Source: Acidimicrobiia bacterium
GTDB lineage: Bacteria > Actinomycetota > Acidimicrobiia > Acidimicrobiales > Aldehydirespiratoraceae
Assembly (NCBI GenBank): GCA_021296315.1
Contig: JAGWAO010000023.1
Coordinates: 19,855 to 83,854 of the forward strand
DNA length: 64,000 nt
Direction of reading: 5' to 3'
The notes below the pieces were generated by a model. The model was not told the DNA's origin. It made no database searches and saw only the letters and a program-made list of their open reading frames with translations. The stretch's first letter is position 1, and every line of letters begins with the position of its first letter. The position numbers and the translations under genes were made by a program. Shown piece by piece: positions 33,128-47,897 of the stretch.

Positions 33128-33248
33128 GAGTCGCTTTGGTTCTCTTGATCAACACGATGGCGGCTCACTGACGTTGCCGCTCCACACGGCGTTCTTGTGT
33201 GGTTGCGGTGGTGTGCGCTGTGAGGTGCCTACGTAGTCACAACAAGCG

Positions 33249-33830
33249 ATGCCGGGTCCCAGCGCCGTTCGGGCAGACGTAGACACGTTTGCCGGGCCGA
33301 TCCGCCCCCGACCGGCGCCTCACACGGTGATCCTCTCTGGGAGCGCGTCGCAGATGAGCAACGCGCAGGTCGCCGCCTACCGCACCACGGGAGCCCCCGC
33401 ATTCCAGCTCGACCCGAGGGATCTAGCCGGCACTGGCAGCGCTGCTCCACGCCAGTGGTTGGAGGACCAGGACCTGAGGAGAGCTCCGCTGGTCTACTCC
33501 ACCGCCGAACCGGAGTTAGTGCGCTCCATCCAGCACGACATGGGGCGGGCTCAGGCCGCTGCGCTTGTGGAGGCCGCGTTGGCCGACTGCGCCCGGGCCG
33601 CGGTCGCTGCCGGGGCGCGGCGGATCGTGGTTGCCGGCGGAGAGACGGCAGCTGCAGTGACCGGGGCTCTCGGCGTCTCCCGGCTCCAGCTCGGGCCCGA
33701 GATCGCACCGGGAGTTCCCTGGTGTTACTTCACGCGTTGTGGTGACACGCACGCCCTGGCCCTCAAGTCCGGGAACTTTGGCACCGACACCTTCTTCTCG
33801 GATGCTCTGGCGGTTCTTGAGCGAACATGA
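33249..33830 (+). pseudogene. otnK: 3-oxo-tetronate kinase (OtnK/DUF1537) C-terminal domain only; 5'-truncated
   Basis: VILSGSASQMSNAQVAAY...RRIVVAGGETAAAVTGALG...LKSGNFG matches the C-terminal nucleotide-binding half of four-carbon acid sugar kinases. The roughly 230-aa N-terminal domain is absent, and an in-frame TAG sits at 33234. Confidence 0.7.
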
Positions 33831-34477
33831 GCGGCGAGGCTGAACTCCGGGAGCAGATCTGTCTGCTCGCCAAGTCGATGTTCGCCCGCCGGCTGACGAG
33901 GGGCTCAACCGGCAATATTTCGGCCAGAACAACCGATGGGGGCCTCCTGGTCTCGCCGACCGGGACCTCGTTCGGGCGACTCGACCCTGGCCGATTGTCG
34001 CGTTTCGACGCAGCCGGCCGGCTGCTCGACGGGGATCCTCCAACGAAGGAGATGCCTCTGCACACGGCGTTCTACGACACACGCCCGCAGACCGGAGCGG
34101 TCGTCCACCTGCACTCTAGCCACTCAGTCGCGTGGTCGATGATGCCCGACGTCGATCCCGAGAATGCGCTGCCGCCGCTCACGCCGTACTCGATCATGCA
34201 ACTCGGAAGAGTGAAGTTGCTGCCCTTCTTCGTGCCAGGTGATCCGGCGATGGGCGAGGCCGTACGTCGCCTGGCCGGTCAACGCTCCGCAGTTCTGCTG
34301 GCCAACCACGGGCCCATCGTCGCCGGTGAGGACCTCGAATCGGCCGGCAATGCGATCGAAGAACTCGAGTACACCGCGGAACTGGCGATGCTCACGCTGG
34401 GTCACCCCACCAAGCCGCTGTCCGAGGACCAGGTCCGGAGTGTCGTGGAGGCGTTCGACATCGATTGGGACGGATAG
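33827..34477 (+). CDS. otnC: Class II aldolase/adducin-family protein (OtnC-like decarboxylase)
   Basis: RGSTGNISAR, SPTGTSFGRL and VVHLHSSHSVAWS motifs. Its start overlaps the otnK fragment stop. Confidence 0.75.
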   Translation: MSGEAELREQICLLAKSMFARRLTRGSTGNISARTTDGGLLVSPTGTSFGRLDPGRLSRFDAAGRLLDGDPPTKEMPLHTAFYDTRPQTGAVVHLHSSHSVAWSMMPDVDPENALPPLTPYSIMQLGRVKLLPFFVPGDPAMGEAVRRLAGQRSAVLLANHGPIVAGEDLESAGNAIEELEYTAELAMLTLGHPTKPLSEDQVRSVVEAFDIDWDG

Positions 34478-34647
34478 GTGCGTGATGGGGGTATAGAACC
34501 CGGATCGGGCGCCGTTGCCGCAGTACAGTCCGCGGGCAGTAGTCGGGCCCAGCGGCACGAGGGGGCAGCACGAGCGAACCGCGGTTCAACCAGCACGGTG
34601 CCGAGATCACCGCGCCGCGCATCTTCAGCTGGGACGAGCTCGATGCG

Positions 34648-35007
34648 GTGCGCTGGGACGCGGACCAGGTGGATGCGCAGATCGTCACCGGTGAGCACAT
34701 GCATCTCATCCGGGCCGTCTACGAGCCGGGTGCGGCCTACGAGATGCACAGCCATCCCTACGAGCAGTTCAGCCTGCTGCTGTCGGGACGCCTGCTGCTG
34801 ACGGTCGGCGACGAGACCCGCGAGATCGGGCCGGGCGACGGCTGGTACGCGCCCGCCGACGTGCCCCACGGGGGCGCGGTCCTCGGCGACGAGCCGGCGG
34901 TGTTCATCGACGTGTACTCCCCGGCGACGGCCTGGATCCTTGACGTGTTCGCGCAGGGAAGGCCGATTCCGGCTGGCGAGCGAGCCGGGACGGAGTCGCA
35001 GGATTGA
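34648..35007 (+). CDS. Cupin-domain protein
   Basis: Cupin motifs AYEMHSHPYEQFSLLLSG and GWYAPADVPHGG. GTG 34648 is the first start codon in the open frame. Confidence 0.7.
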   Translation: MRWDADQVDAQIVTGEHMHLIRAVYEPGAAYEMHSHPYEQFSLLLSGRLLLTVGDETREIGPGDGWYAPADVPHGGAVLGDEPAVFIDVYSPATAWILDVFAQGRPIPAGERAGTESQD

Positions 35008-35924
35008 CCATGGAGAACACGTTCGGCCCCGGTGCAGACCGTTCCGACCTCGCGGCCGCGGTGGCCCGCGACGGCTACGCAGTGGTGCGCAGCGCCGTCG
35101 ACGCCGACACTCTCGCCGCGGTCGCTACCGATCTCCAGCCGTACCTCGACGCCGCCCACACCGGCCACGAGGAGTTCATGGGCAGCCTCACCAAGCGGTT
35201 CGGCGCGCTCGTCGCGAAGTCGACCGCCGTTCAGGCGCTGATCATGCATCCCACCGTGCTCGCAGTCGCCGATCACGCCCTGCTGCCGAGCTGCGCGGCG
35301 TACCAGCTCCACTACACCGGCGTGATGCACCTCGAGCCGGGCGAGAAGCAGCAGGTGCTGCACCGCGACACTTCGGTGTATCCCTTCGCCAACCCGTGCC
35401 CCCCGCTGACAGTGGCCACCATGTGGGCGGTCACCGACTTCACCCGGCAGAACGGCGGCACCAGGATCTGCCCTGGCAGCCACCAGTGGACCAGTGACCG
35501 CGCGCCGGCACGTGACGACGTGATCGCCACCGAGATGCCAGCGGGCTCGGTGCTGATCTACCTGGGCAACGTGATCCACGGCGGCGGGTCGAACCGCTCG
35601 GACAACGCCCGCACGGGCGTGGCGTTGCACTATTCCCTGGGTTGGCTGCGCCAGGAGGAGAACCAGTACCTGGCTGTCACCCAGGAGCAGGCGCGGACCA
35701 TGCCCGACGAGCTCCAGGAGCTGATGGGGTACTCGCTCGGCTCGTCCAACCTCGGCTTCGTCGACCACGTAGCGCCCAAGGACTACCTCCACGGAGTTCG
35801 CGATCCATCCGAGAGCAACCTCAGCCCCACGGGGATGAGCGAGCGGGTCGATGGGCTGCAGCGCTTCCACGTCAGCCACACCGCCCGAGGCCTGGCCCGT
35901 CACTACGACATCGACACCGACTGA
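35004..35924 (+). CDS. Phytanoyl-CoA dioxygenase (PhyH) family protein, paralog 1
   Basis: 306 aa with the Fe(II)/2OG facial triad context (VLHRDTS ... VIHGGGSN). The conserved GWLRQEENQYL block is shared with the paralog at 50599..51561. Confidence 0.8.
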   Translation: MTMENTFGPGADRSDLAAAVARDGYAVVRSAVDADTLAAVATDLQPYLDAAHTGHEEFMGSLTKRFGALVAKSTAVQALIMHPTVLAVADHALLPSCAAYQLHYTGVMHLEPGEKQQVLHRDTSVYPFANPCPPLTVATMWAVTDFTRQNGGTRICPGSHQWTSDRAPARDDVIATEMPAGSVLIYLGNVIHGGGSNRSDNARTGVALHYSLGWLRQEENQYLAVTQEQARTMPDELQELMGYSLGSSNLGFVDHVAPKDYLHGVRDPSESNLSPTGMSERVDGLQRFHVSHTARGLARHYDIDTD

Positions 35925-36061
35925 GAGGCCGAGCGAACAGGCGAGCGGATCCGGCCTCATACGGGCGAGGCCGTGGCCCGAGCGGCCCGTGAGCGCAGCG
36001 AACAAGAGCGGGAAGGACAACGCTGTGACACCACGGATTCTCACCTGTTCGCGGACGCTCT
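35925..36061 (+). mobile_element. GAGCG-rich MITE-like repeat, copy C (137 bp)
   Basis: It starts immediately after the PhyH stop. The arms GCGAACAGG (left) and CCTGTTCGC (right) are complementary. The core is GTGGCCCGAGCGGCCCGTGAGCGCAGCGAACAAGAGCGGGAAG. Confidence 0.85.
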
Positions 36062-36119
36062 GAAGCCTCCGGGCGCCTCCGATAGAGTCGAACACGGAGA
36101 AGTACCCAAGAGGAGGACT

Positions 36120-36404
36120 ATGCGACGCTTCGTCATCGAACGGGACATCCCAGACATCGGCTCGGCCGAGCGCGAACAGCTGCGGGCCGCAGCCGGACAA
36201 TCCAACTCGGTCCTGCAGGCCATGCAGTCCGAGGGCAAGCCCATCCAGTGGGAGCACAGCTACGTGGCCGGCGACAAGACCTTCTGCATCTACGTCTGCG
36301 ACGATCCGGAGCTGATCGACGAGCACGCCGAGCGCAGCGGGTTCCCCGCGACAGTGGTCACCGAGGTGAGAAGGATCATCGATCCCACCACCGAGAAGGG
36401 CTAG
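36120..36404 (+). CDS. DUF4242-like small protein
   Basis: ATG 36120 is preceded by AGGAGGA. MRRFVIERDIPDIGSAEREQLRAAA... (94 aa). The upstream part of the listed ORF is repeat-element sequence. Confidence 0.65.
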   Translation: MRRFVIERDIPDIGSAEREQLRAAAGQSNSVLQAMQSEGKPIQWEHSYVAGDKTFCIYVCDDPELIDEHAERSGFPATVVTEVRRIIDPTTEKG

Positions 36405-36417
36405 CCGCGGAGCAACC

Positions 36418-36948
36418 ATGGCACGCATCGACTTCGGTGACGGCGAGGGGCTCGAGCGCATCCGGATGTGGAGCCTCCAGCCCGACGTGGGCATGGCCAT
36501 GGGGGCCGCGGCCAAGACGCTGTACACCAAGATCTCCCTGGATGTGCGGGTCCGTGAGATCGCCCGCATGCGGGTGGCCCAGATCAACCGGTGCCACATT
36601 TGAATTGACACCCGGTCTGCATCGGCGATGCAGCAAGGACTCGAAGAGGACCTGTACCACCGCGTCTCCGAGTACGCCGACATCGGCGCGTTCAGCGAGG
36701 CCGAGAAGCTGGCGGCCGAGACCGCCGAGCGGTTCTGCTGGGACCACGAGGCCATGATGAGCGACGAGGACTACTGGGCCCGCATGAAGGAGCACTTCAC
36801 CGACCAGCAGATCCTCGAGTTGGTGACGTTGATCGGCTACTGCGTGGCCATGGGACGGACAATGGCCATCCTGGACATCGCCAACGACTGCGCCATCAAC
36901 CAGACCCCCGACCCCACCGAGGACCCGTCCCGCTACATCCACGGCTGA
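36418..36948 (+). CDS. Carboxymuconolactone decarboxylase (CMD/AhpD-like) family protein with an in-frame TGA at 36601-36603 (selenocysteine candidate or pseudogene)
   Basis: ORFs 36418..36603 and 36628..36948 are in the same frame and separated only by this TGA. The joined sequence RVAQINRCHI-[TGA]-IDTRSASA aligns with the family motif RVxQINGCxxCxDxH, placing TGA at the second Cys. A hairpin lies at 36617-36633. Confidence 0.6.
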
Positions 36949-37035
36949 GCTGACCCGGTGGGGCGGCGATGTCGCCCATCTCGCTTGATCGGTGCCGATT
37001 GGCGCTGTTCTACCTAGATTGGTATATTGGTACCT

Positions 37036-37278
37036 ATGGTTCTGAGCATCAAGAGCGCTATGGCAGACCAGCTAGCCCGAGAGCTGGCCGACCTCACGGG
37101 GGAGTCCATCACCGATGCGGTCGTGGCGTCGCTGCGGGCACGCCTCGACCTGGAGCGCCGACGTCAGCGCGACCGCACCCTGGACGACATCATCGAGCGC
37201 TTCCAGCGGTTGCCGATGATCGATGGCCGCAGTCCCGAAGACATCATCGGCTATGACCAGCACGGCCTGCCATCGTGA
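37036..37278 (+). CDS. vapB: VapB-type antitoxin (Rv0623-like family)
   Basis: MVLSIKSAMADQLARELADLTGESITDAVVASL... is typical of this antitoxin family. TATATT at 37023-37028 and tandem TTGGTA repeats lie just upstream. Its stop overlaps the vapC GTG. Confidence 0.75.
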   Translation: MVLSIKSAMADQLARELADLTGESITDAVVASLRARLDLERRRQRDRTLDDIIERFQRLPMIDGRSPEDIIGYDQHGLPS

Positions 37279-37661
37279 ATGTGGTTGACTCGTCCGCGAT
37301 AGTTGCCGTGCTGTTCGGTGAGCCCGGCGGCAAGGACATAGAACGCAAGCTCGTGAGTTCGCCCTGCACCATGTCGGCTGTGACGCATGTCGAGCTCGGG
37401 ATCGTCGTCGAGGCGAGAGCAGGCCCTGCGGGAGCCCAGTTGCTTGAAGAGCTCCTTGCTCGCATCGCGATCAGGATCGAGCCGGTCGATGAGGGCCTTG
37501 CAGGCGAGGCGATCGTGTGCTGGCGCCGGTTCGGCAGGGGCAGGCATCCCGCTGGACTCAACTTCGGCGACACGTTCTCCTATGCGCTCGCTCGCCGAAT
37601 GGGCGTTCCGCTGCTGTTCGTGGGCAATGACTTCTCTCAGACCGACGTTCTCGTCTCCTGA
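37275..37661 (+). CDS. vapC: PIN-domain toxin VapC
   Basis: VVDSSAIVAVLFGEP ... THVELGIV ... NFGDTFSYALA ... FVGNDF: the PIN acidic residues are intact. 128 aa. Confidence 0.85.
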   Translation: MNVVDSSAIVAVLFGEPGGKDIERKLVSSPCTMSAVTHVELGIVVEARAGPAGAQLLEELLARIAIRIEPVDEGLAGEAIVCWRRFGRGRHPAGLNFGDTFSYALARRMGVPLLFVGNDFSQTDVLVS

Positions 37662-37730
37662 TCCCGCGCGGTTCCGGAGCTGAGTCGATTCCTGTGCGGA
37701 GCTGACCGGCCGGCACCGTTCTCGTCTGTC

Positions 37731-38333
37731 TCAGGGCGCGTCCACCAGCACCGCGTCGGCTTCTACGGCCCCGGTCCAGCAGTACAGCAGCACGGTCGGC
37801 GTGGCCCCGAAGTCCTGGCTGTGCACCTGCCAGGGTGTGTGGTGGACGGCGTCGCCCGGCCGGGTGGCCCGCCTGATGCCGTCGATGCTGCCGAACGACG
37901 GCTCGCCGGCGAGGACGTGGTACAGCTCCTCGGCCTCGTGCTTGTGGGCGGGGTAGTGGAGGTGCGGGCCCCACAGTCCGATCCCGACCCTCACCGCGGG
38001 ATGCTCAACGACCGCGTTCGGACCCAGCAGCTGCACGTAGCCGTAGTTGTCGAGGTAGTCCTGGCTCAACACGTCGAGGTAGCCGACAGTCTGGCGCCAC
38101 GGCAGCACCGGAGCGAGCCGGAGGAACTCCTCGAGGACCGCGTCGATGTAGGCATCGCCGCTGGGTTCGACCGCGTCGAGGTGCCGGACCACCGGCAGGA
38201 TGCGGGCCTTGATGCCGGCGGGACCGCGAGCGTGGTCGAGCGCGTCGAGCACCGGTGCCAGCATCGGGAACTCCGGGACCACCGGGCGGCTCCGGTGGAA
38301 GTCGGCGATCCGCCGGAGCAGCCCGTCGATCAC
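37731..38333 (-). CDS. DddL-like cupin (dimethylsulfoniopropionate lyase family protein)
   Basis: Cupin motifs YPAHKHEAEELYHVLAG and PGDAVHHTPWQVHS, preceded by GYVQLLGP. This resembles the DMSP-lyase (DddL) family as recalled. Function is not established. Confidence 0.5.
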   Translation of the reverse strand: MIDGLLRRIADFHRSRPVVPEFPMLAPVLDALDHARGPAGIKARILPVVRHLDAVEPSGDAYIDAVLEEFLRLAPVLPWRQTVGYLDVLSQDYLDNYGYVQLLGPNAVVEHPAVRVGIGLWGPHLHYPAHKHEAEELYHVLAGEPSFGSIDGIRRATRPGDAVHHTPWQVHSQDFGATPTVLLYCWTGAVEADAVLVDAP

Positions 38334-38345
38334 GCCGCGCTCGCG

Positions 38346-38858
38346 CTAAGCGGTGTCGGCAAAGGGTTCGAGCTCGAACAGGCGGAACTCGCGGTCGGTG
38401 ACGGTGACGTACCGGGTCCAGACGGGAAACCAGGCCACCGCGGTCTGCCACCGCCGCTCGCGCTCGGCGCCCTCCAGGAGACGGGCCCTCACCCGCGTCC
38501 GCTTGCCGCGGAACACGATCTCGGCATCGGGGTCAGCGATGAGGTTGGCGGTCCAGGCCGGATGGTGCTGGCGCGCGAAGTTGCTGCCCACCAGCAGGAT
38601 GCGACCACCTTCCAGCGGGACAGCGCCCAGCGGCGTCTCCCGGAGCCGGCCCGTCCTGGCGCCCCTCGTGGTGAGCATGAGCATGGGCTGCGCCGGGGTG
38701 TCGAGCAGGGTGCGGCCCCCGGTGAGCCGGTTGATCGCCCGGTGGAGCGGAGGGAAGACGCGGGGGCCGATGACCCGGAAGGGACGCGACACCAGCACGC
38801 GGCCTGATCCGCGGAACCCTTTCGCGGGTGCGGGCGCCTCGCCGGGTTCGGAGGTCAT
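38346..38858 (-). CDS. Deazaflavin (F420)-dependent nitroreductase family protein (DUF385/Ddn-like)
   Basis: From ATG 38858: ...LMLTTRGARTGRLRETPL...LLVGSNFARQHHPAWTANL...ERERRW, typical of the family. The ATG overlaps the sulfatase stop. Confidence 0.75.
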   Translation of the reverse strand: MTSEPGEAPAPAKGFRGSGRVLVSRPFRVIGPRVFPPLHRAINRLTGGRTLLDTPAQPMLMLTTRGARTGRLRETPLGAVPLEGGRILLVGSNFARQHHPAWTANLIADPDAEIVFRGKRTRVRARLLEGAERERRWQTAVAWFPVWTRYVTVTDREFRLFELEPFADTA

Positions 38859-41137
38859 TGGTGACGCATGACGTCGTCGAGCAGGTCGTCGAGGCCGGGG
38901 AGACTCGACGTGTCGGTGTCGATCACGATCCGCCGGAGATGGGTCAACCGCAGGGGCGGTTCGTACTCGTCGCTGACCGGGAACAGGGTGCTGTAGCCGG
39001 CCGTGGTCCAGGTGCCGTTGGCGGTGGAGATCAAGGGGATGGTGGCGTCGATGGTCGTCGATCCCAGCGACGAGCCGTCGGCGAACTGCTCGACCGTGCT
39101 GCCGCCGTCGACCTCGGCGATCCTCAGTCCGAGTTCGGTGGCTCCTGCAGGCCGGGGCACCGCGAACCGACGAAGCCCGCGATCGGGGGCGTGGATGAAC
39201 GCCACGAGCTCGTCGCCGAGAGCCACCCACGCCCACCCGGCGGTCCAGTTGCCGTGCTCGACGATCACGCCGTCGCCATCGCCGAGGGCGCCGTCGAGTT
39301 CGGCCGCAATGTTGAGCCCACCGAAGATCAAGGGCCCCGCCTGGAAGTTGAGGCGATCGCCGGCGCGGAGCTCGTACGTGCGCCGATAACCCGCGAAGGG
39401 CATGTGGATCAGATGCGGGTTCTGGAGGTACGCCGGGCCGTCCTGGAGCGGCAGCACGTCGTTCCGTTCGGCCTCCGCATCCCAACGGGCTTGAAGCTCG
39501 GCCAAGCGCTCGGGATGGGTCTCAGCCAGGTCCGTAGACTCGGCGAAATCTCGATTGGAGTCGAACAGCATCCACTCATCGGCGCGGAAGTCGACACTGC
39601 CGCCGATCATGTCCCGCTCGTACGGGTTGAACTGGTTGACGTGGTTGGTCACCGCCTTCCAGCCGTCGTGGTAGATGGCCCGACTGCCCCAGCACTCGTA
39701 GTACTGCGTGGTGCGGAACTCGGATGAGCCGGCGTCCGCGATCGACGGGACCATGGACCGGCCGTCAACCGACATCTGCGGCACGCTGCGCACCGATGCC
39801 GGCATCTCGACGTCGAGCAGGTCGAGCACGGTCGGCAGGACGTCGATGGCGTGGCAGTACTGGGAGCGAAACCCTCCGGGATCGGTGACTGCGGCGGGCC
39901 AGCGGACGATCAGCGGATCACGGACGCCGCCTTCCAGGGTGTAGCGCTTCCAGCGCCGCAGGGGTGTGTTGCCGGCGTGAGCCCAGCCCCACGGATAGTG
40001 GCTGTAGCCGCGGTGACCGCCCGCGGTGTCCACGGTGTCCTTCAACCGGTCGAGCGATTCGAGGCCTTCGTTGATCTGGGTCAAGTGGTTGGTCGAGCCA
40101 TGGGGACCGCCCTCACCCGACGCTCCGTTGTCGGACATCACGATGACGATGGTGTTGTCGAGCTCGCCGAGATCGTCGAGACAGTCGATGATCCGGCCCA
40201 GTTGCGCATCGGTGTGGGTCAGGAAGCCCGCGAACACCTCCTGAAGCCGTGCGTACAGCCGCTTGGTGCTGGCGTCGAGATCGTCCCACGCCTCGATCCA
40301 GTCCGGCCGCGGGCTCAACTCGGTGCCGTCAGGCACCACGCCGGACTCGATCTGGCGAGCCAGAGTGTGCTCGCGGAGCGCGTCCCAGCCGTCGTCGAAG
40401 GCGCCCTCGTACGGCTTGATCCACTCATCGTGCACATGGTGCGGGGCGTGGGGCGCGGCGGTGGCCCAATAGAGAAAGAACGGCCGGCTGGGCTGGTGCA
40501 GCCGGAGCTCTCGGATCATGTCGACGGCCTCGTCGGCCATGTCCTCGGTGAAGTGGTAGCCCTCGTCCGGCGTTCGGGGCGGGTCGACATAGCTCTGGTC
40601 GCGCACCAGATCGGGGGTCCACTGCGATTCCTCGCCGCCGAGGAATCCGTAGTACCGGTCGAATCCCTGCCCGGTGGGCCAGGTGTGGAACGGCCCACTG
40701 GGGCCGCGATGGTCGCGCGGCGTGAGGTGCCACTTGCCGATGGCCCACGTCGCCCAGCCCTCCTCGCGCAACACGGCCGGAAGGGTGGCGGCCTCGAGCG
40801 GGATCACGCCGGTGTACCCGGGGAACGGAAGGGGCAGGTCGGGGAACATTCCCATGCCGACGCGGTGGTGGTTGCGGCCGGTGAGGACGCAGGCGCGGGT
40901 GGGCGAGCAGAACGCGGTGGTGTGGAAGTTCGTGTAGCGCAGCCCCTCCGCGGCCAGCCGATCCATGGTGGGCGTCGCGATGGGGCTGCCGTAGCACCCG
41001 AGCTGAGCGAAGCCGCAGTCGTCGAGCACGACCATCAGGACATTGGGACCGCCCACCGGGAACGGGCTCGGCGGGCGCTCCGCCGACGATTCCGCCAGCG
41101 TGAAGCCGATACGCATCTCAGGATCGCTCTCAGGCAT
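38855..41137 (-). CDS. Arylsulfatase (formylglycine-dependent sulfatase family)
   Basis: 760 aa. N-terminal NVLMVVLDDCGF and the FGly signature CSPTRACVLTGRNHH. Confidence 0.9.
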   Translation of the reverse strand: MPESDPEMRIGFTLAESSAERPPSPFPVGGPNVLMVVLDDCGFAQLGCYGSPIATPTMDRLAAEGLRYTNFHTTAFCSPTRACVLTGRNHHRVGMGMFPDLPLPFPGYTGVIPLEAATLPAVLREEGWATWAIGKWHLTPRDHRGPSGPFHTWPTGQGFDRYYGFLGGEESQWTPDLVRDQSYVDPPRTPDEGYHFTEDMADEAVDMIRELRLHQPSRPFFLYWATAAPHAPHHVHDEWIKPYEGAFDDGWDALREHTLARQIESGVVPDGTELSPRPDWIEAWDDLDASTKRLYARLQEVFAGFLTHTDAQLGRIIDCLDDLGELDNTIVIVMSDNGASGEGGPHGSTNHLTQINEGLESLDRLKDTVDTAGGHRGYSHYPWGWAHAGNTPLRRWKRYTLEGGVRDPLIVRWPAAVTDPGGFRSQYCHAIDVLPTVLDLLDVEMPASVRSVPQMSVDGRSMVPSIADAGSSEFRTTQYYECWGSRAIYHDGWKAVTNHVNQFNPYERDMIGGSVDFRADEWMLFDSNRDFAESTDLAETHPERLAELQARWDAEAERNDVLPLQDGPAYLQNPHLIHMPFAGYRRTYELRAGDRLNFQAGPLIFGGLNIAAELDGALGDGDGVIVEHGNWTAGWAWVALGDELVAFIHAPDRGLRRFAVPRPAGATELGLRIAEVDGGSTVEQFADGSSLGSTTIDATIPLISTANGTWTTAGYSTLFPVSDEYEPPLRLTHLRRIVIDTDTSSLPGLDDLLDDVMRHQ

Positions 41138-41302
41138 CGGTCGCCAGTCGCTCCATTCAGGTCCCGCGGCAGGGTATCGAGGGCCACTCCGAGGTTTGCA
41201 GGCTCATGGTCGCACCATCCATCCGGCGCGGTGAGTGGAGTTCGTGTTCAAGCTCTCCATGCGACACCATTGAGAGGTCAGGTCGAGCAGACGGGAGCAT
41301 CC

Positions 41303-42676
41303 ATGGCCGAACATCCCTCCGACGCTGCAGACTCCCGGTGCGACCTGCTCCTCAGCGGTGGCGCGGTCATCACGATGGACGACGAGCGCCGGATCCTCGA
41401 ACCGGGGGCGGTGGCGATCACCGGGGACCGCATCAGCGCGGTCGGGTCACCCGCGGACCTGGGCCGCCTGGACGCGGCCCGCACCGTCGACTGCCGGGGA
41501 TCGGCGGTGATCCCCGGGTTCGTGTCCGCTCACGACCACCTGTTCCAGAACGCGGCCCGCGGTCTTGGCGAGGGAGTGGACTTCCGGGTCTGGCTGCCGG
41601 ACTTCATGTTCCCCCTGGCCCTCAACATGGCCCGAGACGAGGCGGTCGCAGCCGTCACCATGACCATCGTTGAGCAGGTGCGAACCGGCACCACCGCGGT
41701 GCTGGACCATCACTATGCAGGCACCGACATCGAGACCACCCTGGCGGTGGCCGAAGCGGTCGAGCGGGTCGGCATGCGAGGCGCCATCGGCCGGGGCTTA
41801 GGCCGTGAGCAGCCCTGCCCCGAATCGGAGCAGCTCGACATGATGGCCGCCGCCATCGACGCCCGGCCGGCCGGCAGCAAGGTCGAGATCTGGCCCGCGC
41901 CGGGCGACATCATCTACAACGACCAGGACTTCGTGGCCGCCTCGGTGCAGTTGGCCCGGGACAAAGGCGTCGGCTGGCACACGCATTGCTCCCAGTACAA
42001 GACCGATCCCGACGTGTACCTGGCCGAGCACGGCATCCGCCCGGTTCTGTGGCTCCACGAAGCGGGGCTGCTGGGGCCCGACGGTCACTTCGCCCACATG
42101 ATCTTTCTCGACGACGAGGAGGTGGACAGGGCAGGGGAAAGCAATGCCGCCATCGCCTACTGCCCGATCTCCCACGGCGTCTTCGGGCTGGGGACCATGC
42201 GGCTGGCCGAGCTGCGGGCCGCGGGGGCGATCATCGGGCTCGGATACGACGGTGCGGTGGCCGGGTTCCGCAACGACATGTTCGAGCAGATGAAGATGGC
42301 GGTGATGATCCAGCGGCTCCAGGCCATGGACCCCACGCTGTCGGGCCCGGCCGAGGCTCTGGAATTGGCCACCCGGGAAGGCGCACGCTTCCTGGGAATC
42401 GACGCGGGGATTCTGGCACCCGGCAAGCTCGCCGACATCGCGGTGGTGAGCCTGCAGGGCGCTCACATGGTTCCGCGCCCCGGTCCCGTAGCCGCCGTCG
42501 CCTACACGGCCCGCAGCTCTGACGTTCAGATGACGATCGTCGGCGGCGAGGCAATATTCGAGAACGGTGCCTGCACCCGTGTCGATCAAGCCGAGGTGAT
42601 GGCCGAAGCCGCCGCCAGCACCGAGCGCCTGCTCAGCCGCCTCGATCTGGACCTCGGCACCCTGCGGCGAGCCTGA
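41303..42676 (+). CDS. Amidohydrolase (TRZ/ATZ, aminodeaminase-like)
   Basis: From ATG 41303: DLLLSGGAVITMD...IPGFVSAHDHL (metal HxH site)...HTHCSQ...GLGYDG. The upstream part of the listed 941-aa ORF is antisense to the sulfatase gene. Confidence 0.8.
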   Translation: MAEHPSDAADSRCDLLLSGGAVITMDDERRILEPGAVAITGDRISAVGSPADLGRLDAARTVDCRGSAVIPGFVSAHDHLFQNAARGLGEGVDFRVWLPDFMFPLALNMARDEAVAAVTMTIVEQVRTGTTAVLDHHYAGTDIETTLAVAEAVERVGMRGAIGRGLGREQPCPESEQLDMMAAAIDARPAGSKVEIWPAPGDIIYNDQDFVAASVQLARDKGVGWHTHCSQYKTDPDVYLAEHGIRPVLWLHEAGLLGPDGHFAHMIFLDDEEVDRAGESNAAIAYCPISHGVFGLGTMRLAELRAAGAIIGLGYDGAVAGFRNDMFEQMKMAVMIQRLQAMDPTLSGPAEALELATREGARFLGIDAGILAPGKLADIAVVSLQGAHMVPRPGPVAAVAYTARSSDVQMTIVGGEAIFENGACTRVDQAEVMAEAAASTERLLSRLDLDLGTLRRA

Positions 42677-42753
42677 CCCTTGGGGTTGGTCGGCGCTCGA
42701 GATCGCCGAGATCCCGATACCTCGGTGCGGCTCGTCCTACACGGCCTGAGGGC

Positions 42754-43020
42754 CTATCTCGCCCCTTCAACCAGTAGCCGCTCGCGCAGCTCGACCAGGC
42801 CGGTCCGGGCTTGCTTGGCGTACTGGGTTAGCCGCATCGTGCCGTGCGAGGGCACGCCATACAGGTCGGCGCCCACGAGATTCTCCGCAATCTCGGCCGC
42901 GATGTCACCGTCGCAGCCGACGCGGGTCATCACATCGGCCGCGAACTCGGTCAGCTCTCCGGCACTGACGACATGCACGGGCTCGCCGCCCGTCGCAGGC
43001 CGCGCTAGTTCTCCTGCCAC
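42754..43020 (-). pseudogene. N-terminal fragment of an Ldh_2-family (malate/L-lactate dehydrogenase type 2) oxidoreductase
   Basis: The 88-aa ORF with AEIAENLVGADLYGVPSHGTMRLTQYAKQARTG matches only the first ~70 residues of ~350-aa family members. Confidence 0.6.
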
Positions 43021-43109
43021 TCGGCTCCCTTACCTAGGGTAGGTGTGTCGGTTCCCATGGTGCTGACGTGCCGGCCGCCCGATCGCCCCGGCTCGACTGA
43101 CAAGCCCGG

Positions 43110-43415
43110 CTAGAAGTCGAATCCGTTGGCCGCCACCGGAGTGGTCATGGCCATGTCGGGCGGGCCGTCCAGCAGGGCCATCATGGCCGGCATGGCGGCC
43201 TGCATGGCCTCGTTGTTGGCGTGCTGCTGGGCGGCTTCCATGCTCGACATGAGCGCGAAGAACCAGTAGGTGCCGTCGTCGCCCCGGTGGTAGGAGTACG
43301 ACTCGACGCCGTCCACCGACTCGCTGGCTGCGACCACGGCCCGCAGCGCCTCGTCCATCTCGGAGCCCTTGCCCTCTTTGCAGGAGAACTTGGCGAACAC
43401 TGAGACCTTCGACAT
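43110..43415 (-). CDS. Antibiotic-biosynthesis-monooxygenase (ABM) domain protein
   Basis: From ATG 43415: MSKVSVFAKFSCKEGKGSEMDEALRAVV...YSYHRGDDGTYWFFALM (101 aa, ferredoxin-like ABM pattern). Confidence 0.65.
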   Translation of the reverse strand: MSKVSVFAKFSCKEGKGSEMDEALRAVVAASESVDGVESYSYHRGDDGTYWFFALMSSMEAAQQHANNEAMQAAMPAMMALLDGPPDMAMTTPVAANGFDF

Positions 43416-43532
43416 GTTCCTCGCCCTTTCGCGCGGTAGTGGGACAACGGCACGGGGCTCGCCCCCGGACCGCTCCGAGACGCTACCGGGCCGCATGGCT
43501 AGAGTCGTCCGCCCGAGCCCGAAGGGAGCATC

Positions 43533-44057
43533 GTGGGAGAGAACCTGCGCTCGCGCATCGAGATGACAGACGAGGAGCTCGCCCGGTTCATCGACCAGTC
43601 GCGCACCTGCACCATGGCCACCGTCGGCCCCGCAGGGATGCCCCACCTCGTAGCCATGTGGTACGCCTGGCTCAACGGCCAGGTGTGGCTGGAGTCGAAG
43701 GCAAAGGCCCAGAAGATCATCAACCTGCGCCGCGACGACCGGCTGTCGGTGATGATCGAGGCCGGCAACACCTACGACACCCTGCGAGGGGTGTCGCTGG
43801 AGGGTCGCGGCGTGATCGTCACCGGTCCCGAGGAGATCTGGCGGGTCGGGGTCAACGTCTGGGAGCGCTACACCGCTCCCTACTCCGAGGAAGTGCGGCC
43901 CCTGGTAGAGGCGATGCTGCGCAAGCGGGTGGCGGTGCGCCTCGACGTGGAACGGGTCCGCAGCTGGGACCACCGCAAGCTCGGGCTCGGCACCATCGAG
44001 GCGGGCGGCACCACCGGACCGCACCTCGACGGCCCCGGACTGCCGGGCCCCGGCTGA
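43533..44057 (+). CDS. PPOX-class (pyridoxamine 5'-phosphate oxidase-like) probable F420-dependent enzyme
   Basis: SRTCTMATVGPAGMPHLVAMWY...NLRRDDRLSVMIE pattern. 174 aa. Confidence 0.7.
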   Translation: MGENLRSRIEMTDEELARFIDQSRTCTMATVGPAGMPHLVAMWYAWLNGQVWLESKAKAQKIINLRRDDRLSVMIEAGNTYDTLRGVSLEGRGVIVTGPEEIWRVGVNVWERYTAPYSEEVRPLVEAMLRKRVAVRLDVERVRSWDHRKLGLGTIEAGGTTGPHLDGPGLPGPG

Positions 44058-44091
44058 GCAACGTCTCCATCGGAGCGCTAGGAACGCTGGC

Positions 44092-44514
44092 ATGGAACTA
44101 GCAGAGGCAATCACCTGGGCAGCCGAGCGTATGCTCGGGGTGCTCATCACCATCCGGTCCGACGGCCGCCCCCAGTCATCCGACATCGTCTACTGCGTCG
44201 ACGGTGGCGTGTTCTCGATCTCAGTTACCGCTGGCCGGGCCAAGACCGCCAATCTGCGACGGGACCCCAGAGCAGTGCTGCACATCTCGGACGAGAAGGC
44301 CTGGTCGTACGTGTCCCTCGACGGCACGGTCGAGTTGTTGCCGGTCACGACCAGCGCCGACGACGCCACCAGCGACGCCCTCGTCGACTACTACGAACGG
44401 GTGACGGGCGACCCGCATCCCGACTGGCAGGAATTCCGCCGGGCGATGATCGAAGAGCGCCGCCACATCGCCCGCTTCACACCGACCAGCGCCGCCGGCC
44501 AGATCCACGGTTAG
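44092..44514 (+). CDS. PPOX-class probable F420-dependent enzyme (Rv1155-like)
   Basis: GVLITIRSDGRPQSSDIVY...KTANLRRDPRAVLHI pattern. 140 aa. Confidence 0.7.
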   Translation: MELAEAITWAAERMLGVLITIRSDGRPQSSDIVYCVDGGVFSISVTAGRAKTANLRRDPRAVLHISDEKAWSYVSLDGTVELLPVTTSADDATSDALVDYYERVTGDPHPDWQEFRRAMIEERRHIARFTPTSAAGQIHG

Positions 44515-44521
44515 TAAGGTC

Positions 44522-45310
44522 ATGGAAGCAGCGGACACGCCGCGAGCCGAGGACATCTTCTCGCTCGACGGCAGAGTCGCCATAGTGACCGGGGCCAGCG
44601 GGACGCTGGGAGAGCGCTACTGCCGGGTGCTGGCCGGCCGGGGAGCGACCGTCGTCGCGGCGGCCCGCAGGCTGGACCGGCTGGAAGCCTTGGCGGGGGA
44701 GGTGCCCGGGGTGATGCCGGTGGGCTGCGACGTCACCGACGACTCGCAACTGCGGCGGCTGGTCGAGGTGGCAGCCGAGCATGGCGGTCCCGACATCGTG
44801 GTCAACAACGCGGGAACCAGCGACGCGGTGATCCGGGCCCACGAGCAGGACCCCGACCATTTCCGGCGAGTGCTGGACATCAACCTCACGGCCGCGTTCG
44901 TGCTGTCGGCGGCCGCGGCCCGGTGGATGATCGAGCACGGCCGGCGCGGCAACATCGTCAACGTGGCGTCGATGCTGGGGATCGTCGCCTCCGGCGGCAA
45001 CCACCAGGCCGGCTACGTGGCCTCCAAGAGCGGCCTGATCGGCCTCACACGGGAGCTGGCCAAGCAGTGGGCCCCGGAGGGCATCAGGGTCAACGCCATC
45101 GCTCCGGGCTACTTCCGCAGCGGGCTAACCGAGGAGATGTTCGCAGGCGACGACGCTCCCGGCCTCCGCCACATCGAGCGCAACACCCTCATGAGGCGAG
45201 CCGGCGAGATCGACGAGTTCGACGGAGCGTTGCTGCTGCTCGCCTCCGACGCGGGCAGCTACATCACCGGCCAGACGATCCTAATCGACGGGGGCTGGAC
45301 CGCCCGCTAG
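44522..45310 (+). CDS. SDR-family oxidoreductase
   Basis: VTGASGTLG, NNAG and YVASKSG (YxxxK) motifs. 262 aa. Confidence 0.85.
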   Translation: MEAADTPRAEDIFSLDGRVAIVTGASGTLGERYCRVLAGRGATVVAAARRLDRLEALAGEVPGVMPVGCDVTDDSQLRRLVEVAAEHGGPDIVVNNAGTSDAVIRAHEQDPDHFRRVLDINLTAAFVLSAAAARWMIEHGRRGNIVNVASMLGIVASGGNHQAGYVASKSGLIGLTRELAKQWAPEGIRVNAIAPGYFRSGLTEEMFAGDDAPGLRHIERNTLMRRAGEIDEFDGALLLLASDAGSYITGQTILIDGGWTAR

Positions 45311-45315
45311 CCGAA

Positions 45316-45358
45316 CTTGACGTAGTTGTACCGCTCTGAGGCGCTCAACTACGTCAAG
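45316..45358. repeat. REP-like hairpin, TTGAYGTAGTTG family, between convergent genes
   Basis: CTTGACGTAGTTG, a 17-nt loop, then CAACTACGTCAAG. The 13-bp stem is perfect. Confidence 0.75.
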
Positions 45359-45387
45359 AACGGCGAGGACGGACGGCTCACCGCCGG

Positions 45388-46558
45388 CTAGACCGCGCCG
45401 GCCCGGCGGTAGGCGTCGAGCAGCAGGCCGTGGAAGTGGTGGACGCCGTGCTCGGAGAGGCCCGAGCCGCCCGGGTCGCACACGATGCGGCCCTGGGTGA
45501 ACGCCGGCGTGCGCATGCCCCGCTGCACGCTCTCCACGATGGCGATGTCCTCGGGCTGGAGGACCTCGTCCATGTAGCGGATCGACTCCTCGTCGGCTTC
45601 GGTCAGCTCTCCGGTATCGAGGTAGAAGTCGAGGGTCTCCAGCGTGCGCTCCGGTCCGGCGGGCACCATCTGCATCACGCTGAAGTTGCCCCGGCCCGGA
45701 TAGCGCATCAGGCAGGTGTTGGGCCACAGCCACCACACCGCCAGGTCCTTCACGCTGGATCCGGACACGTCGTAGGCGGCGTTGGCCGAGTACCCGGCCC
45801 GGGCCATCTGGCTCGAGTAGATGCCGTGGGTGGTCACCACGTAGGTGTCCATCTCGACCAGCGTCACGAAGTCGGGATGGGCTACGTGGCAGTGGTAGCA
45901 CTCCAGGAAGTTGTCGACCACGTTCTTCCAGTTGGAGGCGATGTCGTAGTGGATGCTCCTCCACGTCGGGGGCGCAGCGGGCGATCTCGTCGCCCAGGCC
46001 CCCGGACTGCTCGGCCAGGGAGTCAGCCGCGGGGTCGAGGTTGACGTACACGAAGCCGCCGAACTCGGCGGCCTGGACCTCGCTGAGGCAGATGCTCGAG
46101 GCATCGAACCCGGCCACGTCCGCGGTGCGGCGGGCCTGGGCGAGCCGGCCGGTCAGTTCGTAGGTCCAGCCGTGGTAGGGGCAGACGATGCTGTCGGTGC
46201 GGCCCGACCCCGACAGCAGCTCATGGGCCCGGTGCTGGCACACGTTGTAGAACGCCCGCAGCTCGCCGTCGCGGCCTCGGACCAGCGCGACCGGCATGCC
46301 CGCCACCTCAAGGGCCAGGTACGACCCGGACTCGCGGAGCGACTCGACATGGCACACCCACTGCCACGTCCGGGCGAATATCTCCCGCCGCTCGATCTCG
46401 AGCCAGCGAGGCTCGATGTAGGCGTCGGCATGCAGGGACAGTGACAGGGTCGGATCGGGGTCATATCCCGTAGCGATTCCAGCGGTGGTCGCGCTGTCGC
46501 CATTCGAGAATGCGTCAGACTCGGATGCTCGGGTGTCGGTGCTCGTCAAGGGCCCCAA
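45388..46558 (-). pseudogene. Rieske-type ring-hydroxylating oxygenase alpha subunit with a frameshift near 45955-45975
   Basis: The N-part (CQHRAHEL...CPYHGW Rieske site) is in one frame up to ...GDEIARCAPDVEE. The catalytic domain (SIHYDIASNWKNVVDNFLECYHCHVAHPDF...) is in another frame (ORF 45388..46104). The span is 1171 nt (3n+1), and a C5 run lies at the junction. Confidence 0.8.
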
Positions 46559-46616
46559 TCTAGACGCAGGCAGTTAGCGTGCGGGCCGGACACAACACCG
46601 GACACGAGGCTCGGAC

Positions 46617-47897
46617 TTGAAGAATCCCGTGACGTCCGTCTGTCGAAGTCTCAGAGCAGCGGCCGTGGTTCTGATGCTGCTGGCGGCTGCCTGCGGCCGC
46701 GACGACGGCCCGGCAACCGCAACCCCCGAAGCGGCCGACGCGGCCGAGACGCAGGCCGGCCAAGAGATGGGCGATATGGGCGACACTGGCCAGGACGCCA
46801 GCGGCCATCACGACCATGGCACCTCTGTCGAGGTGGCCGAGGGCGTGCCGGTGCCGACTATCGCCATCGAAGTCACCGAGGACCCGGTGGAGGGATGGAA
46901 CCTCCGGATCCTCACCACGGACTTCCGGATCGTGCCCGAGAACGTCTCCACATCCCACGTCGACGGCGAGGGCCACATGCACCTCTACATCGACGGGGAG
47001 AAGGTGTCGAGGCTCTACGGCGAATGGCACCACATCGGTGCGCTGGCCCCCGGCGAACACGAGGTGCGGGTCGAGCTGTCGGCCAACGACCACTCGGCAC
47101 TGGCCGTCGACGGCAACATCATCGACGCCACGACCGTCATCGTCGCGGATGAGATGAGCGGCCGCGCCACAGGCCACAGTCACGCCGGGGCCAGGGAGGC
47201 GCAACGGCCGTACCCGTCGGTGAGCGTGGAGCTGGTGGACGACCTGGCCGGCGGCTGGATCCTCCACGCGGTGCCCTCCAACTTCCGCCTCGCCCCCGGA
47301 AACGCCTCCAGCGGTCACGTCGACGGCGAGGGCCACATGCACCTGTACGTCAACGGCGACAAGGTGGCCCGGGTCTACGAGACCTGGTACCAGATGCCGC
47401 CACTGCCGGCCGGGACCCATGAGATCAAGGTGGCCCTGCAGACCAACGACCACGCCCCGCTCACGGCGGACGGCATCAAGGTCGCGGGGACCATAACTCT
47501 GGAAGTGTCCGAGGATGAGGCCACCATGCCGGCCGGCAGCGAGCACGGCACCGACACCAGCGACGATCTCAGCGAAGAGGCCGGCCATGCGATGGCGGGC
47601 ACGCCGACCCAGTACGACGCGGACACCTCAGACGCGGCTCAGACCATCACGGTGGAAGTGGTCGACGGCGGGCCGGTGGGCGGCGTCCAGCGGGTAGCGG
47701 TCGATCTCGGCTCGGTGGTGGCGCTGATGGTGACCTCCGACGTCTCCGAGGAAGTGCACGTCCACGGCTACGACATCCTGCGAGCCATGTCCTCCGGGCA
47801 TCCCGCCCATTTCGCCTTCACTGCGGAGATCCCGGGCGTGTTCGAGGTGGAATTCGAGGGCTCGGGCCGCCTGCTGTTGCTGCTCGAGGTCTCCTGA
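46617..47897 (+). CDS. His-rich secreted/lipoprotein with an internally duplicated domain and a cupredoxin-like C-terminal domain
   Basis: Signal peptide with a Cys (VVLMLLAAAC). Two ~110-aa repeats each contain HVDGEGHMHLY(I/V)(D/N)G. The C-terminal beta-rich domain has HVHGYD. Confidence 0.6.
   Translation: MKNPVTSVCRSLRAAAVVLMLLAAACGRDDGPATATPEAADAAETQAGQEMGDMGDTGQDASGHHDHGTSVEVAEGVPVPTIAIEVTEDPVEGWNLRILTTDFRIVPENVSTSHVDGEGHMHLYIDGEKVSRLYGEWHHIGALAPGEHEVRVELSANDHSALAVDGNIIDATTVIVADEMSGRATGHSHAGAREAQRPYPSVSVELVDDLAGGWILHAVPSNFRLAPGNASSGHVDGEGHMHLYVNGDKVARVYETWYQMPPLPAGTHEIKVALQTNDHAPLTADGIKVAGTITLEVSEDEATMPAGSEHGTDTSDDLSEEAGHAMAGTPTQYDADTSDAAQTITVEVVDGGPVGGVQRVAVDLGSVVALMVTSDVSEEVHVHGYDILRAMSSGHPAHFAFTAEIPGVFEVEFEGSGRLLLLLEVS

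Follow-up and report, generated by a model that had tools for sequence, protein, structure and literature searches.

Does the locus at positions 36418-36948 of a 64-kb stretch of DNA from an Acidimicrobiia bacterium (contig JAGWAO010000023.1; the whole stretch of 64,000 nucleotides (nt) is referred to here as the window) hold a broken gene or an intact one? Two open reading frames (ORFs) lie there in the same frame on the forward strand, are separated by a single TGA codon and together resemble the carboxymuconolactone decarboxylase (CMD)/AhpD-like proteins. An earlier reading of this sequence alone (the original prediction) proposed that the TGA encodes selenocysteine (Sec) and that a hairpin directly downstream is a Sec insertion sequence (SECIS) element. 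Comparison with related sequences makes it very likely that the locus is one functional gene for a 176-residue CMD/AhpD-like selenoprotein, in which UGA would be read as Sec by means of the SECIS.

Direct reading of the sequence confirmed the two ORFs and the joined product. A single frame on the forward strand runs from the ATG at 36418 to the stop codon TGA at 36946-36948, with one internal in-frame TGA at 36601-36603; it comprises 176 codons plus the stop and gives a product of 176 amino acids (aa) once the internal TGA is bridged. The features of the gene are listed below.

36409-36412 (+): GGAG, a Shine-Dalgarno-like sequence read from the sequence, 5 nt 5' of the start codon
36418-36948 (+): predicted complete selenoprotein coding sequence, CMD/AhpD-like, with the motif E47 ... 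C59-H-I-U62-I-D-T-R66 (based on the frame, PF02627, the alignment of Cys homologues and dN/dS)
36556-36558 (+): Glu47 codon GAG, 12 residues before the first Cys, matching the AhpD-like proton-relay Glu
36592-36594 (+): Cys59 codon TGC, first position of the CxxU redox motif
36601-36603 (+): in-frame TGA, the predicted Sec codon (U62), aligned with the second Cys of CxxC in homologues
36604-36616 (+): 13-nt spacer from the UGA to the SECIS stem, of invariant length across Sec forms (gap-free alignment)
36613-36615 (+): Arg66 codon CGG, at the position of the canonical AhpD proton-relay His
36617-36633 (+): putative SECIS core hairpin, with CUGCAUC (36617-36623), loop GGC (36624-36626) and GAUGCAG (36627-36633)
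36634-36639 (+): CAAGGA (Gln73, Gly74), the 3' flank of the hairpin, with nearly frozen synonymous sites

The joined product matches the Pfam CMD family PF02627 over residues 22-103, scoring 37.2 bits (cutoff 23) with E 3e-9, in agreement with the family first proposed. Mechanical ORF calling cuts the gene into ORFs of 61 and 106 aa, and the identical split is annotated on the JGI metagenome contig L081, an independent assembly of near-same DNA that is 99.6% identical to the window over 33247-46931. The approximately 75 protein-database clusters with 62-90% identity are likewise all fragments, of 97-148 aa and most of exactly 106 aa, which begin at Met71 or directly after the TGA and are named 'hypothetical' or 'CMD family'; some homologues are named 'alkylhydroperoxidase family enzyme' by JGI. 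These fragments are the mark of gene callers stopping at a conserved TGA. Full-length homologues were found in the databases only at 51% identity or less, and all of them carry CxxC. An annotation artefact from another assembly of a near-identical strain is the database protein P0079 (162 aa, from a 2.8-kb contig), in which a frameshifted copy of the upstream DUF4242 gene is fused to residues 1-61 of the selenoprotein and which likewise terminates at the TGA.

Conservation of the TGA was assessed in a family set of 81 members, made up of the window and the DNA of 80 species-representative genomes in which matches were translated. The TGA was found in the identical column in 39 of the 80 genomes (GTDB species representatives, all Acidimicrobiia) and TGT or TGC in the other 41, so that one column holds a Sec/Cys pair, with TGA in 40 sequences and Cys in 41. 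The 39 TGA-bearing relatives share 45-95% protein identity with the window and include metagenome-assembled genomes (MAGs) from sponges, at 91-95% identity, from the open ocean and from freshwater (acIV/Ilumatobacteraceae), with identity falling to about 45%. A scan for the 17-nt SECIS core revealed at least five further TGA forms on metagenome contigs, among the 120 matches listed. A TGA confined to one strain, with a hairpin that is not conserved, had been named in advance as the outcome that would count against a selenoprotein; the TGA proved instead to be shared by all these other genomes and contigs. Its place in the motif is also as first described, since the local peptide RVAQINRC-H-I-[TGA]-IDTR aligns with full-length Cys homologues (...NECNVCINTR...) such that the TGA is the second Cys of CxxC.

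Among the Sec forms, median dN/dS values are 0.21 over the 61 codons that precede the TGA and 0.32 over those that follow it, with synonymous sites near saturation (dS approximately 1). The frame relation across the TGA is constant and neither half contains further stops or indels. Both halves are thus under purifying selection and the TGA is a conserved codon, a pattern that neither a pseudogene nor an assembly error can give. The motif is C-H-I-U in marine and C-V-V-U in freshwater forms, and a Sec-form variant with C-P-I-U is present on the metagenome contig L117 (Ga0209035_10012850, positions 2361-2363); the motif therefore tolerates different residues at its two inner positions.

Of 39 coding-like ORFs in the window, 24 end in TGA, which makes it the most frequent ordinary stop there, and there is therefore no genome-wide reassignment of UGA. 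A scan of the window for other read-through TGAs with coding signal on both sides, based on GC content at third codon positions (GC3), found that only the CMD/AhpD-like gene qualifies. The TGA at 4053-4055 (+), although coding-like on both sides, is an ordinary stop with a new same-frame gene starting about 50 nt later; the N-terminus of that gene is P-loop-like (...LTGGIGAGK). The same scan of high-GC related loci re-found the CMD TGA 16 times, and its other four sites are ordinary stops (one is the own stop of a CMD gene and three precede a new same-frame gene). The metagenome scan for the 17-nt core was also searched for reuse of the element by other gene families; the non-family matches among the 120 listed are chance matches that lack a selenoprotein-like context. 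The 17-nt core itself encodes ASAM.

In a neighbour-joining tree, a quick distance tree that gives the number of reversions only approximately, the Sec forms fall into one clade (the window and L001-L042), and its deep branches L019, L015 and L042 are Sec without exception. The outgroups (soil Acidimicrobiales, Microthrixaceae/Iamiaceae, Nevskiaceae/Solimonas and a Mycobacterium) all have Cys. The freshwater part of the Sec clade contains two nested groups with Cys, L032/L033/L039 and P0038/P0059; L043, which lies outside the tree, has the same motif as L032/L033/L039. The appearance of L053 as a Sec form in the tree is an artefact of its terminal stop, as L053 has Cys. The simplest reading of these sequences would be one gain of Sec from Cys with a single SECIS origin, which the invariant core fits, and a later return to Cys, once or twice, accompanied by decay of the SECIS. 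The clade would then offer a natural experiment in Cys-to-Sec gain and subsequent Sec-to-Cys reversion.

The hairpin downstream of the TGA

The hairpin, a perfect 7-bp stem with a GGC loop, lies at the coordinates originally given, with the stem 13 nt and the loop 20 nt after the TGA. In a gap-free alignment of the 40 Sec forms, the 13-nt hairpin core GCATCGGCGATGC and the length of the spacer are invariant, synonymous sites included, and the seven pairs of the stem are intact in 40/40. Stem pair 2 is U-A in 25 sequences, C-G in 10 and U-G in five, and is never broken. Overall, 94.6% of the cells of the alignment are paired, compared with 19-57% in control registers that shift the 3' partners by 1-3 columns.

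Constraint on the hairpin is also evident at the codon level. Among 64 conserved degenerate codon columns, zero codon entropy was found only at codons 68-70 (GCA TCG GCG, 40/40 sequences), while the other four- and six-fold degenerate codons have 1.1-2.4 bits and the GC content of the gene ranges from 44% to 67% among Sec forms. Immediately 3' of the stem, Gln73 is CAA in 36/37 and Gly74 is GGA in 37/40 Sec forms, compared with GGT or GGC in Cys forms. This CAAGGA flank probably belongs to an extended SECIS; it contains AAGGA, which resembles a Shine-Dalgarno sequence, and a search for a supported pairing partner of the flank found none.

By contrast, the Cys orthologues L032, L033, L039 and L043 encode a near-same peptide (AASAM) with different synonymous codons, such that the hairpin cannot form. 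Folding z-scores are approximately 0 for Cys forms, as for shuffled sequences, and range from -0.9 to -2.8 for Sec forms. The hairpin is frozen in the TGA forms and lost in the Cys forms, and the constraint is therefore tied to the UGA.

The published consensus for bacterial SECIS (bSECIS) elements (PMC13188914) specifies a loop of 3-9 nt with an upper stem of 4-16 bp, a loop that starts with GG, a distance of 16-37 nt from the UGA to the loop and a minimum free energy (MFE) of -7.5 kcal/mol or lower. The window hairpin agrees with all four. Its loop of 3 nt and stem of 7 bp (8 bp in freshwater forms) are within the size limits, the GGC loop (40/40) places GG in the first two positions, and the distance from the UGA to the loop is an invariant 20 nt (13-nt spacer plus 7-nt arm), in line with the original prediction. 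The MFE is -7.8 kcal/mol for the bare 17-nt hairpin and -14.0 kcal/mol in a 45-nt context; among relatives the bare hairpin reaches -9.3 kcal/mol in ten, and the five with the U-G pair are borderline at -7.1 kcal/mol.

Two proposed extensions of the stem were rejected. A lower stem (C11-C12 with G37-G38) has no covariation support. The additional G15:C34 pair with a bulged U, which formed part of the original prediction, is possible in the window but likewise lacks covariation support and is not a conserved feature: in marine relatives position 15 is the variable third base of a codon, and in freshwater relatives C34 pairs directly with G16.

In the proposed mechanism, the UGA at 36601-36603 would not be read as a stop during translation and the hairpin 13 nt downstream would act as a bacterial SECIS. 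It would recruit the SelB-GTP-Sec-tRNA(Sec) complex to the ribosome, upon which Sec would be inserted and translation would continue to the stop at 36946. Actual insertion of Sec, its dependence on SelB, the substrate and the physiological role are what we infer from these comparisons.

Fold, active site and predicted chemistry

The nearest solved structures by sequence are the Pseudomonas aeruginosa PA0269-type AhpD (2ijc, 2o4d and 7xw1) and Atu0492 (2gmy), with E approximately 1e-5, and their CxxCxxxH aligns with C-H-I-U-I-D-T-R. A fold model was obtained for the Cys homologue P0038, which is 49% identical to the window protein and serves as its proxy. The model (pLDDT 83, pTM 0.77) is all-helical and has CxxC at the N-terminal end of helix 60-72. 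Foldseek searches with it returned 7xw1, 2ijc and 2o4d first (target-normalised TM 0.82-0.89, rmsd 1.8-2.0 Å), the best match to P. aeruginosa AhpD/PA0269 having a target-normalised TM of 0.89 and an rmsd of 1.8 Å; other AhpD-like antioxidant proteins came next and the CMD-family debrominase Bmp8 lower. The model of P0038 suggests an AhpD-like fold for the family.

The proton relay of AhpD-like proteins consists of Glu36, Cys48, Cys51 and His55 (PA0269 numbering), of which both Cys and the His are described as invariant (PMC3141380). The window protein has E47-x11-C59-x-x-U62, the same Glu-Cys spacing as PA0269 Glu36-Cys48, and all 81 family members have both Glu47 and Cys59. Where canonical AhpD has its His (His137 in Mycobacterium tuberculosis, His55 in PA0269), Arg is found in 81/81, in Sec and Cys forms alike. 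The Arg is therefore a signature of the subfamily and not decay, which settles a concern raised when Arg66 was first seen at this position, four residues beyond the second Cys of the motif. The protein combines an AhpD fold and redox motif with the loss of one defining feature of canonical AhpD; for this reason it is not filed as a canonical AhpD. It represents an AhpD-fold subfamily in which Arg always occupies the place of the canonical catalytic His.

As a rule, Sec replaces the attacking nucleophile of an enzyme. The exposed residue with which M. tuberculosis AhpD attacks AhpC is its second Cys, Cys133 (PMC6626918), and, by analogy, Sec at this position would fit the rule. The predicted redox centre is C59-x-x-U62 at the N-terminal end of a helix, with Glu47 nearby and R66 at the place of the canonical His, and the most likely chemistry would be a selenol/thiol oxidoreductase cycle. 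The selenolate would attack an oxidised substrate, which may be a protein sulphenate or disulphide, such as that of a peroxiredoxin, or a small-molecule peroxide; Cys59 would then resolve the intermediate to a U62-C59 selenenylsulphide, to be reduced by a cellular thiol reductant.

The change from His to Arg and the weak similarity to Bmp8 leave room for a substrate other than AhpC. The clade with the E...CxxU...R signature could, with rather low probability, be a distinct small-molecule selenoenzyme instead of an AhpC-recycling AhpD, catalysing for instance a Bmp8-like or deiodinase-like reductive dehalogenation or another selenol-dependent reduction. The invariant Arg would then replace the His relay because the chemistry differs, and reductive dehalogenation, if true, would suit sponge symbionts that live among halogenated metabolites. 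A secondary point of this reading is that the SECIS core GCAUC-GGC-GAUGC, which is invariant across genes of 44-67% GC, would define the motif recognised by Acidimicrobiia SelB.

Alternative readings and the Sec-decoding machinery

Several observations weigh against the assignment of the locus as a SECIS-dependent selenoprotein gene or against parts of it. Covariation was found at one stem pair only, the other six being invariant and by themselves silent on structure, and the window sequence alone folds modestly better than shuffles (z = -1.96, 45 nt). Rfam gave no match, either at gathering thresholds or when 36560-36700 was scanned permissively, as is expected from its poor coverage of bacterial SECIS elements. 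The structural model is that of the Cys homologue P0038. The protein lacks the canonical AhpD His, and its gene has no peroxiredoxin gene beside it: the neighbours with Pfam labels, over about 8 kb upstream and 10 kb downstream, include no AhpC-TSA or Redoxin gene. A role as AhpC reductase in particular is therefore uncertain. Neither the 64-kb window, in which a tRNA scan gave no tRNA at all, nor the flanks of the related loci showed selA, selB, selD or tRNA-Sec. In addition, one Acidimicrobiia bin of the sponge Aplysina aerophoba, bin134 (approximately 90% complete), lists SelD and neither SelA nor SelB (PMC5649159 Table S4).

Related loci were also searched for the machinery. ARAGORN found ordinary tRNAs and one transfer-messenger RNA (tmRNA) in the 80 related loci and no tRNA-Sec. 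Escherichia coli SelD and SelA probes gave no tblastn matches in the window and 81 loci, a result that is uninformative as the machinery normally lies elsewhere in the genome. Published work on the class and on sponge habitats gives indirect support. Within the class Acidimicrobiia, selA, selB, selC and selD are reported in all 84 complete genomes of Actinomarina (Actinomarinales; preprint 10.64898/2026.04.03.716425). SelA and SelB are enriched in sponge-symbiont bins (PMC5649159), and a second A. aerophoba Acidimicrobiia bin, bin76, has SelA, SelB and SelD (PMC5649159 Table S4). The two sponge bins have 61.6% and 64.3% GC, compared with 68.8% for the window, and neither is the organism from which the window derives.

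The lack of Sec machinery in the window and related loci, together with the sponge bin that has no annotated SelA or SelB, would be expected if the UGA were recoded independently of SelB, that is by near-cognate or suppressor read-through (inserting Trp, Cys or another residue), stimulated by the hairpin in a host devoid of the machinery. This reading is improbable. The recoded position is a redox Cys in a classic Sec/Cys pair, the geometry and GG loop of the hairpin match the consensus of SelB-type bSECIS elements, related Acidimicrobiia encode selA/B/C/D, and TGA serves as an ordinary stop elsewhere in the window.

Marginally less probable again is a split gene, in which translation terminates at the UGA and a 61-aa peptide and a separately initiated 106-aa protein (from the AUG at 36628) form two subunits, with the hairpin serving in coupling or regulation. 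Selection on both parts would also be expected of two subunits, and the 106-aa ORF is predicted by gene callers in many genomes. Its putative start, Met71 (ATG 36628-36630, nine codons after the TGA), is conserved, but equally so in the uninterrupted Cys homologues, and is therefore not specifically a start codon; it also lies inside the 3' arm of the hairpin and has no Shine-Dalgarno sequence upstream. Termination would fall exactly on the catalytic Cys column and delete an active-site residue from both pieces, and the frame relation and the 13-nt spacing are constant, with a hairpin that fits the bSECIS model.

The original prediction named as its alternative a pseudogene, formed by a recent nonsense mutation from TGC or TGT to TGA in a CxxC AhpD-like gene, with the hairpin a coincidence. 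An in-frame stop at a Cys codon is a single mutational step away, and gene callers and GenBank annotate only fragments of the gene. The comparative data rule this alternative out for practical purposes, leaving it a very slight probability: the same TGA recurs in 39 other species-level genomes and at least five metagenome contigs at 45-95% identity, the two halves remain in frame at the low dN/dS values given above with no further stops or indels, the synonymous sites of the hairpin are frozen in TGA forms only, and the divergence of the related loci (dS approximately 1) excludes that they are copies of one assembly artefact. A sequencing or assembly error as the source of the TGA has nothing specific in its favour beyond the metagenomic origin of the window and its difference elsewhere from the near-identical JGI contig (a 17-nt indel), and has a negligible probability given the identical split in the independent assembly L081 and the TGA shared by dozens of independent assemblies from different sequencing technologies.

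The Sec reading of the UGA, with a SECIS downstream as first suggested, is supported by the conserved TGA and hairpin, purifying selection, covariation in the stem, frozen synonymous codons and the loss of the hairpin in Cys lineages. A gene that looks broken is almost certainly intact, and the same annotation error recurs across an abundant class of marine, freshwater and sponge-associated bacteria. The gene would add a selenoprotein to the selenoproteomes of the Acidimicrobiia and would imply that sponge symbionts and their free-living relatives decode Sec and need selenium for at least one redox function.

Neighbouring genes and comparison with known systems

No neighbour is conserved across the family, and gene order is conserved within sub-clades only. 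The gene directly upstream in the window is as follows.

36120-36404 (+): SCO4226-like/DUF4242 gene (Pfam label PF14026), with its stop codon TAG at 36402-36404; listed as genomic context

Among the related loci, this gene is found directly upstream only in the sponge clade, in the closest relatives L001-L004. In 15 freshwater loci (L016-L041), a 126-aa NTF2/SnoaL-like ORF lies on the same strand 15-48 nt downstream of the CMD gene and may be an operon partner specific to the freshwater clade. In the window, a VapB-like antitoxin (PF07704; 37036-37278, +) and a PIN-domain toxin (PF01850; 37275-37661, +) are encoded immediately downstream of the selenoprotein gene. In L001 and L003 a gene for a dimethylsulphoniopropionate (DMSP)-lyase-like protein lies within about 50 nt after the CMD gene, which suggests that the toxin-antitoxin pair was inserted in the window lineage, adding about 0.7 kb. 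Further downstream, 37731-41137 (-) encodes a DMSP-lyase-like cupin (PF16867), an F420H2-dependent quinone reductase (PF04075) and a 760-aa sulphatase (PF00884), a cluster typical of sponge and marine symbionts.

Two differences from the near-identical contig L081 were observed. The gene for a Rieske ring-hydroxylating oxygenase alpha-subunit at 45388-46549 (-) has a 17-nt deletion near 45954/45955 that shifts the frame (tblastn frames -1/-2), while the same gene is intact on L081 (392 aa); the broken copy is either a strain pseudogene or an assembly error. Positions 1-4737 of L081 (two SnoaL-like genes, an RraA-like gene and SBD_N/NBD_C) have no alignment to the window upstream of 33247, and this break at about 33247 is either a strain-level rearrangement or a chimeric assembly.

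Among characterised proteins, PA0269 AhpD (2o4d, 2ijc and 7xw1) and Atu0492 (2gmy) share with the window protein the fold, the Glu-x11-Cys-x-x-Cys spacing and a catalytic helix-turn-helix near the N-terminus. PA0269 differs in having Cys where the window protein is predicted to have Sec and His55 in place of the invariant Arg, and the window protein has in addition a C-terminal extension of about 30 residues, which is of low confidence in the model. M. tuberculosis AhpD (1gu9 and 1knc), an adaptor that reduces AhpC, has a CxxC redox centre on the same helical motif. Its chain topology is different, with the motif C-terminal (PMC3141380), and the fold similarity is weak (E 2.4); ahpD and ahpC share an operon there, whereas the window gene has no peroxiredoxin gene beside it, and His137 is replaced by Arg.

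The CMD-family reductive dehalogenase Bmp8 (6ohi and 6ohj), a debrominase, performs Cys-based redox chemistry on a small molecule. It has the same fold (Foldseek E 1.6e-3, target-normalised TM 0.65) and is weakly similar in sequence (E 0.077), a distant similarity that is a lead to an alternative class of substrate and not a classification. The window gene has no conserved genomic link to genes for halogenated metabolites.

Compared with the bSECISearch consensus, the window element agrees in its 3-nt loop, 7-bp upper stem, GG start, 20-nt spacing and energy of -7.8 kcal/mol. It differs in being very short, with a loop at the minimum allowed size and neither a supported lower stem nor a conserved bulged U, and in the frozen CAAGGA 3' of the stem, which is outside the model.

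The original prediction was correct in stating that AhpD-like selenoproteins had been predicted in marine metagenomes. The Sargasso Sea data contained 27 sequences of AhpD-like selenoproteins (COG2128) and four of a CMD domain-containing selenoprotein (PF02627) (PMC1088965). The GOS data contained 299 sequences of AhpD-like 1 and 70 of AhpD-like 2, the latter more abundant in non-marine samples (PMC2398784), and several selenoprotein families of the AhpD/CMD superfamily are listed in a 2026 review (PMC13188914). AhpD-like 1 (COG2128/TIGR01926) resembles the window protein in belonging to the CMD/AhpD-like superfamily, in its CxxU with Sec second, in a SECIS hairpin directly downstream and in its marine abundance; compared by description and profile, it differs in that the window protein reaches only 25.1 bits on TIGR01926 against a cutoff of 81.8 and has Arg for His. 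AhpD-like 2 and the CMD selenoprotein, compared by description, are defined by PF02627 and CxxU only, which is how the window protein classifies; the non-marine abundance of AhpD-like 2 may be set beside the window clade, half of which are freshwater Acidimicrobiia.

The best NCBIfam matches are NF053654 ('YciW-related (seleno)protein') and NF041047 ('GSU3128 family (seleno)protein'), both of the AhpD superfamily with Sec/Cys members. The window protein scores 48 bits against a cutoff of 310 for the former and 17.1 against 110 for the latter and is not a member of either; no curated NCBIfam model among TIGR01926, NF053654 and NF041047 reaches its cutoff for the window protein. The NCBI pipeline therefore leaves the Sec codon unannotated. 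Dozens to hundreds of records would be corrected by a model built for this family in which the Sec column is marked. The general picture is unchanged by this gene, which is of use to annotation and ordinary for the field.

The clade may already be among the published metagenomic reads. It seems to be under-recognised, as it falls below all the curated NCBIfam cutoffs and the close database homologues found are all truncated. It also carries the E...CxxU...R signature. AhpD-like selenoproteins with CxxU have been known since 2005, and the window gene is another member of that known kind.

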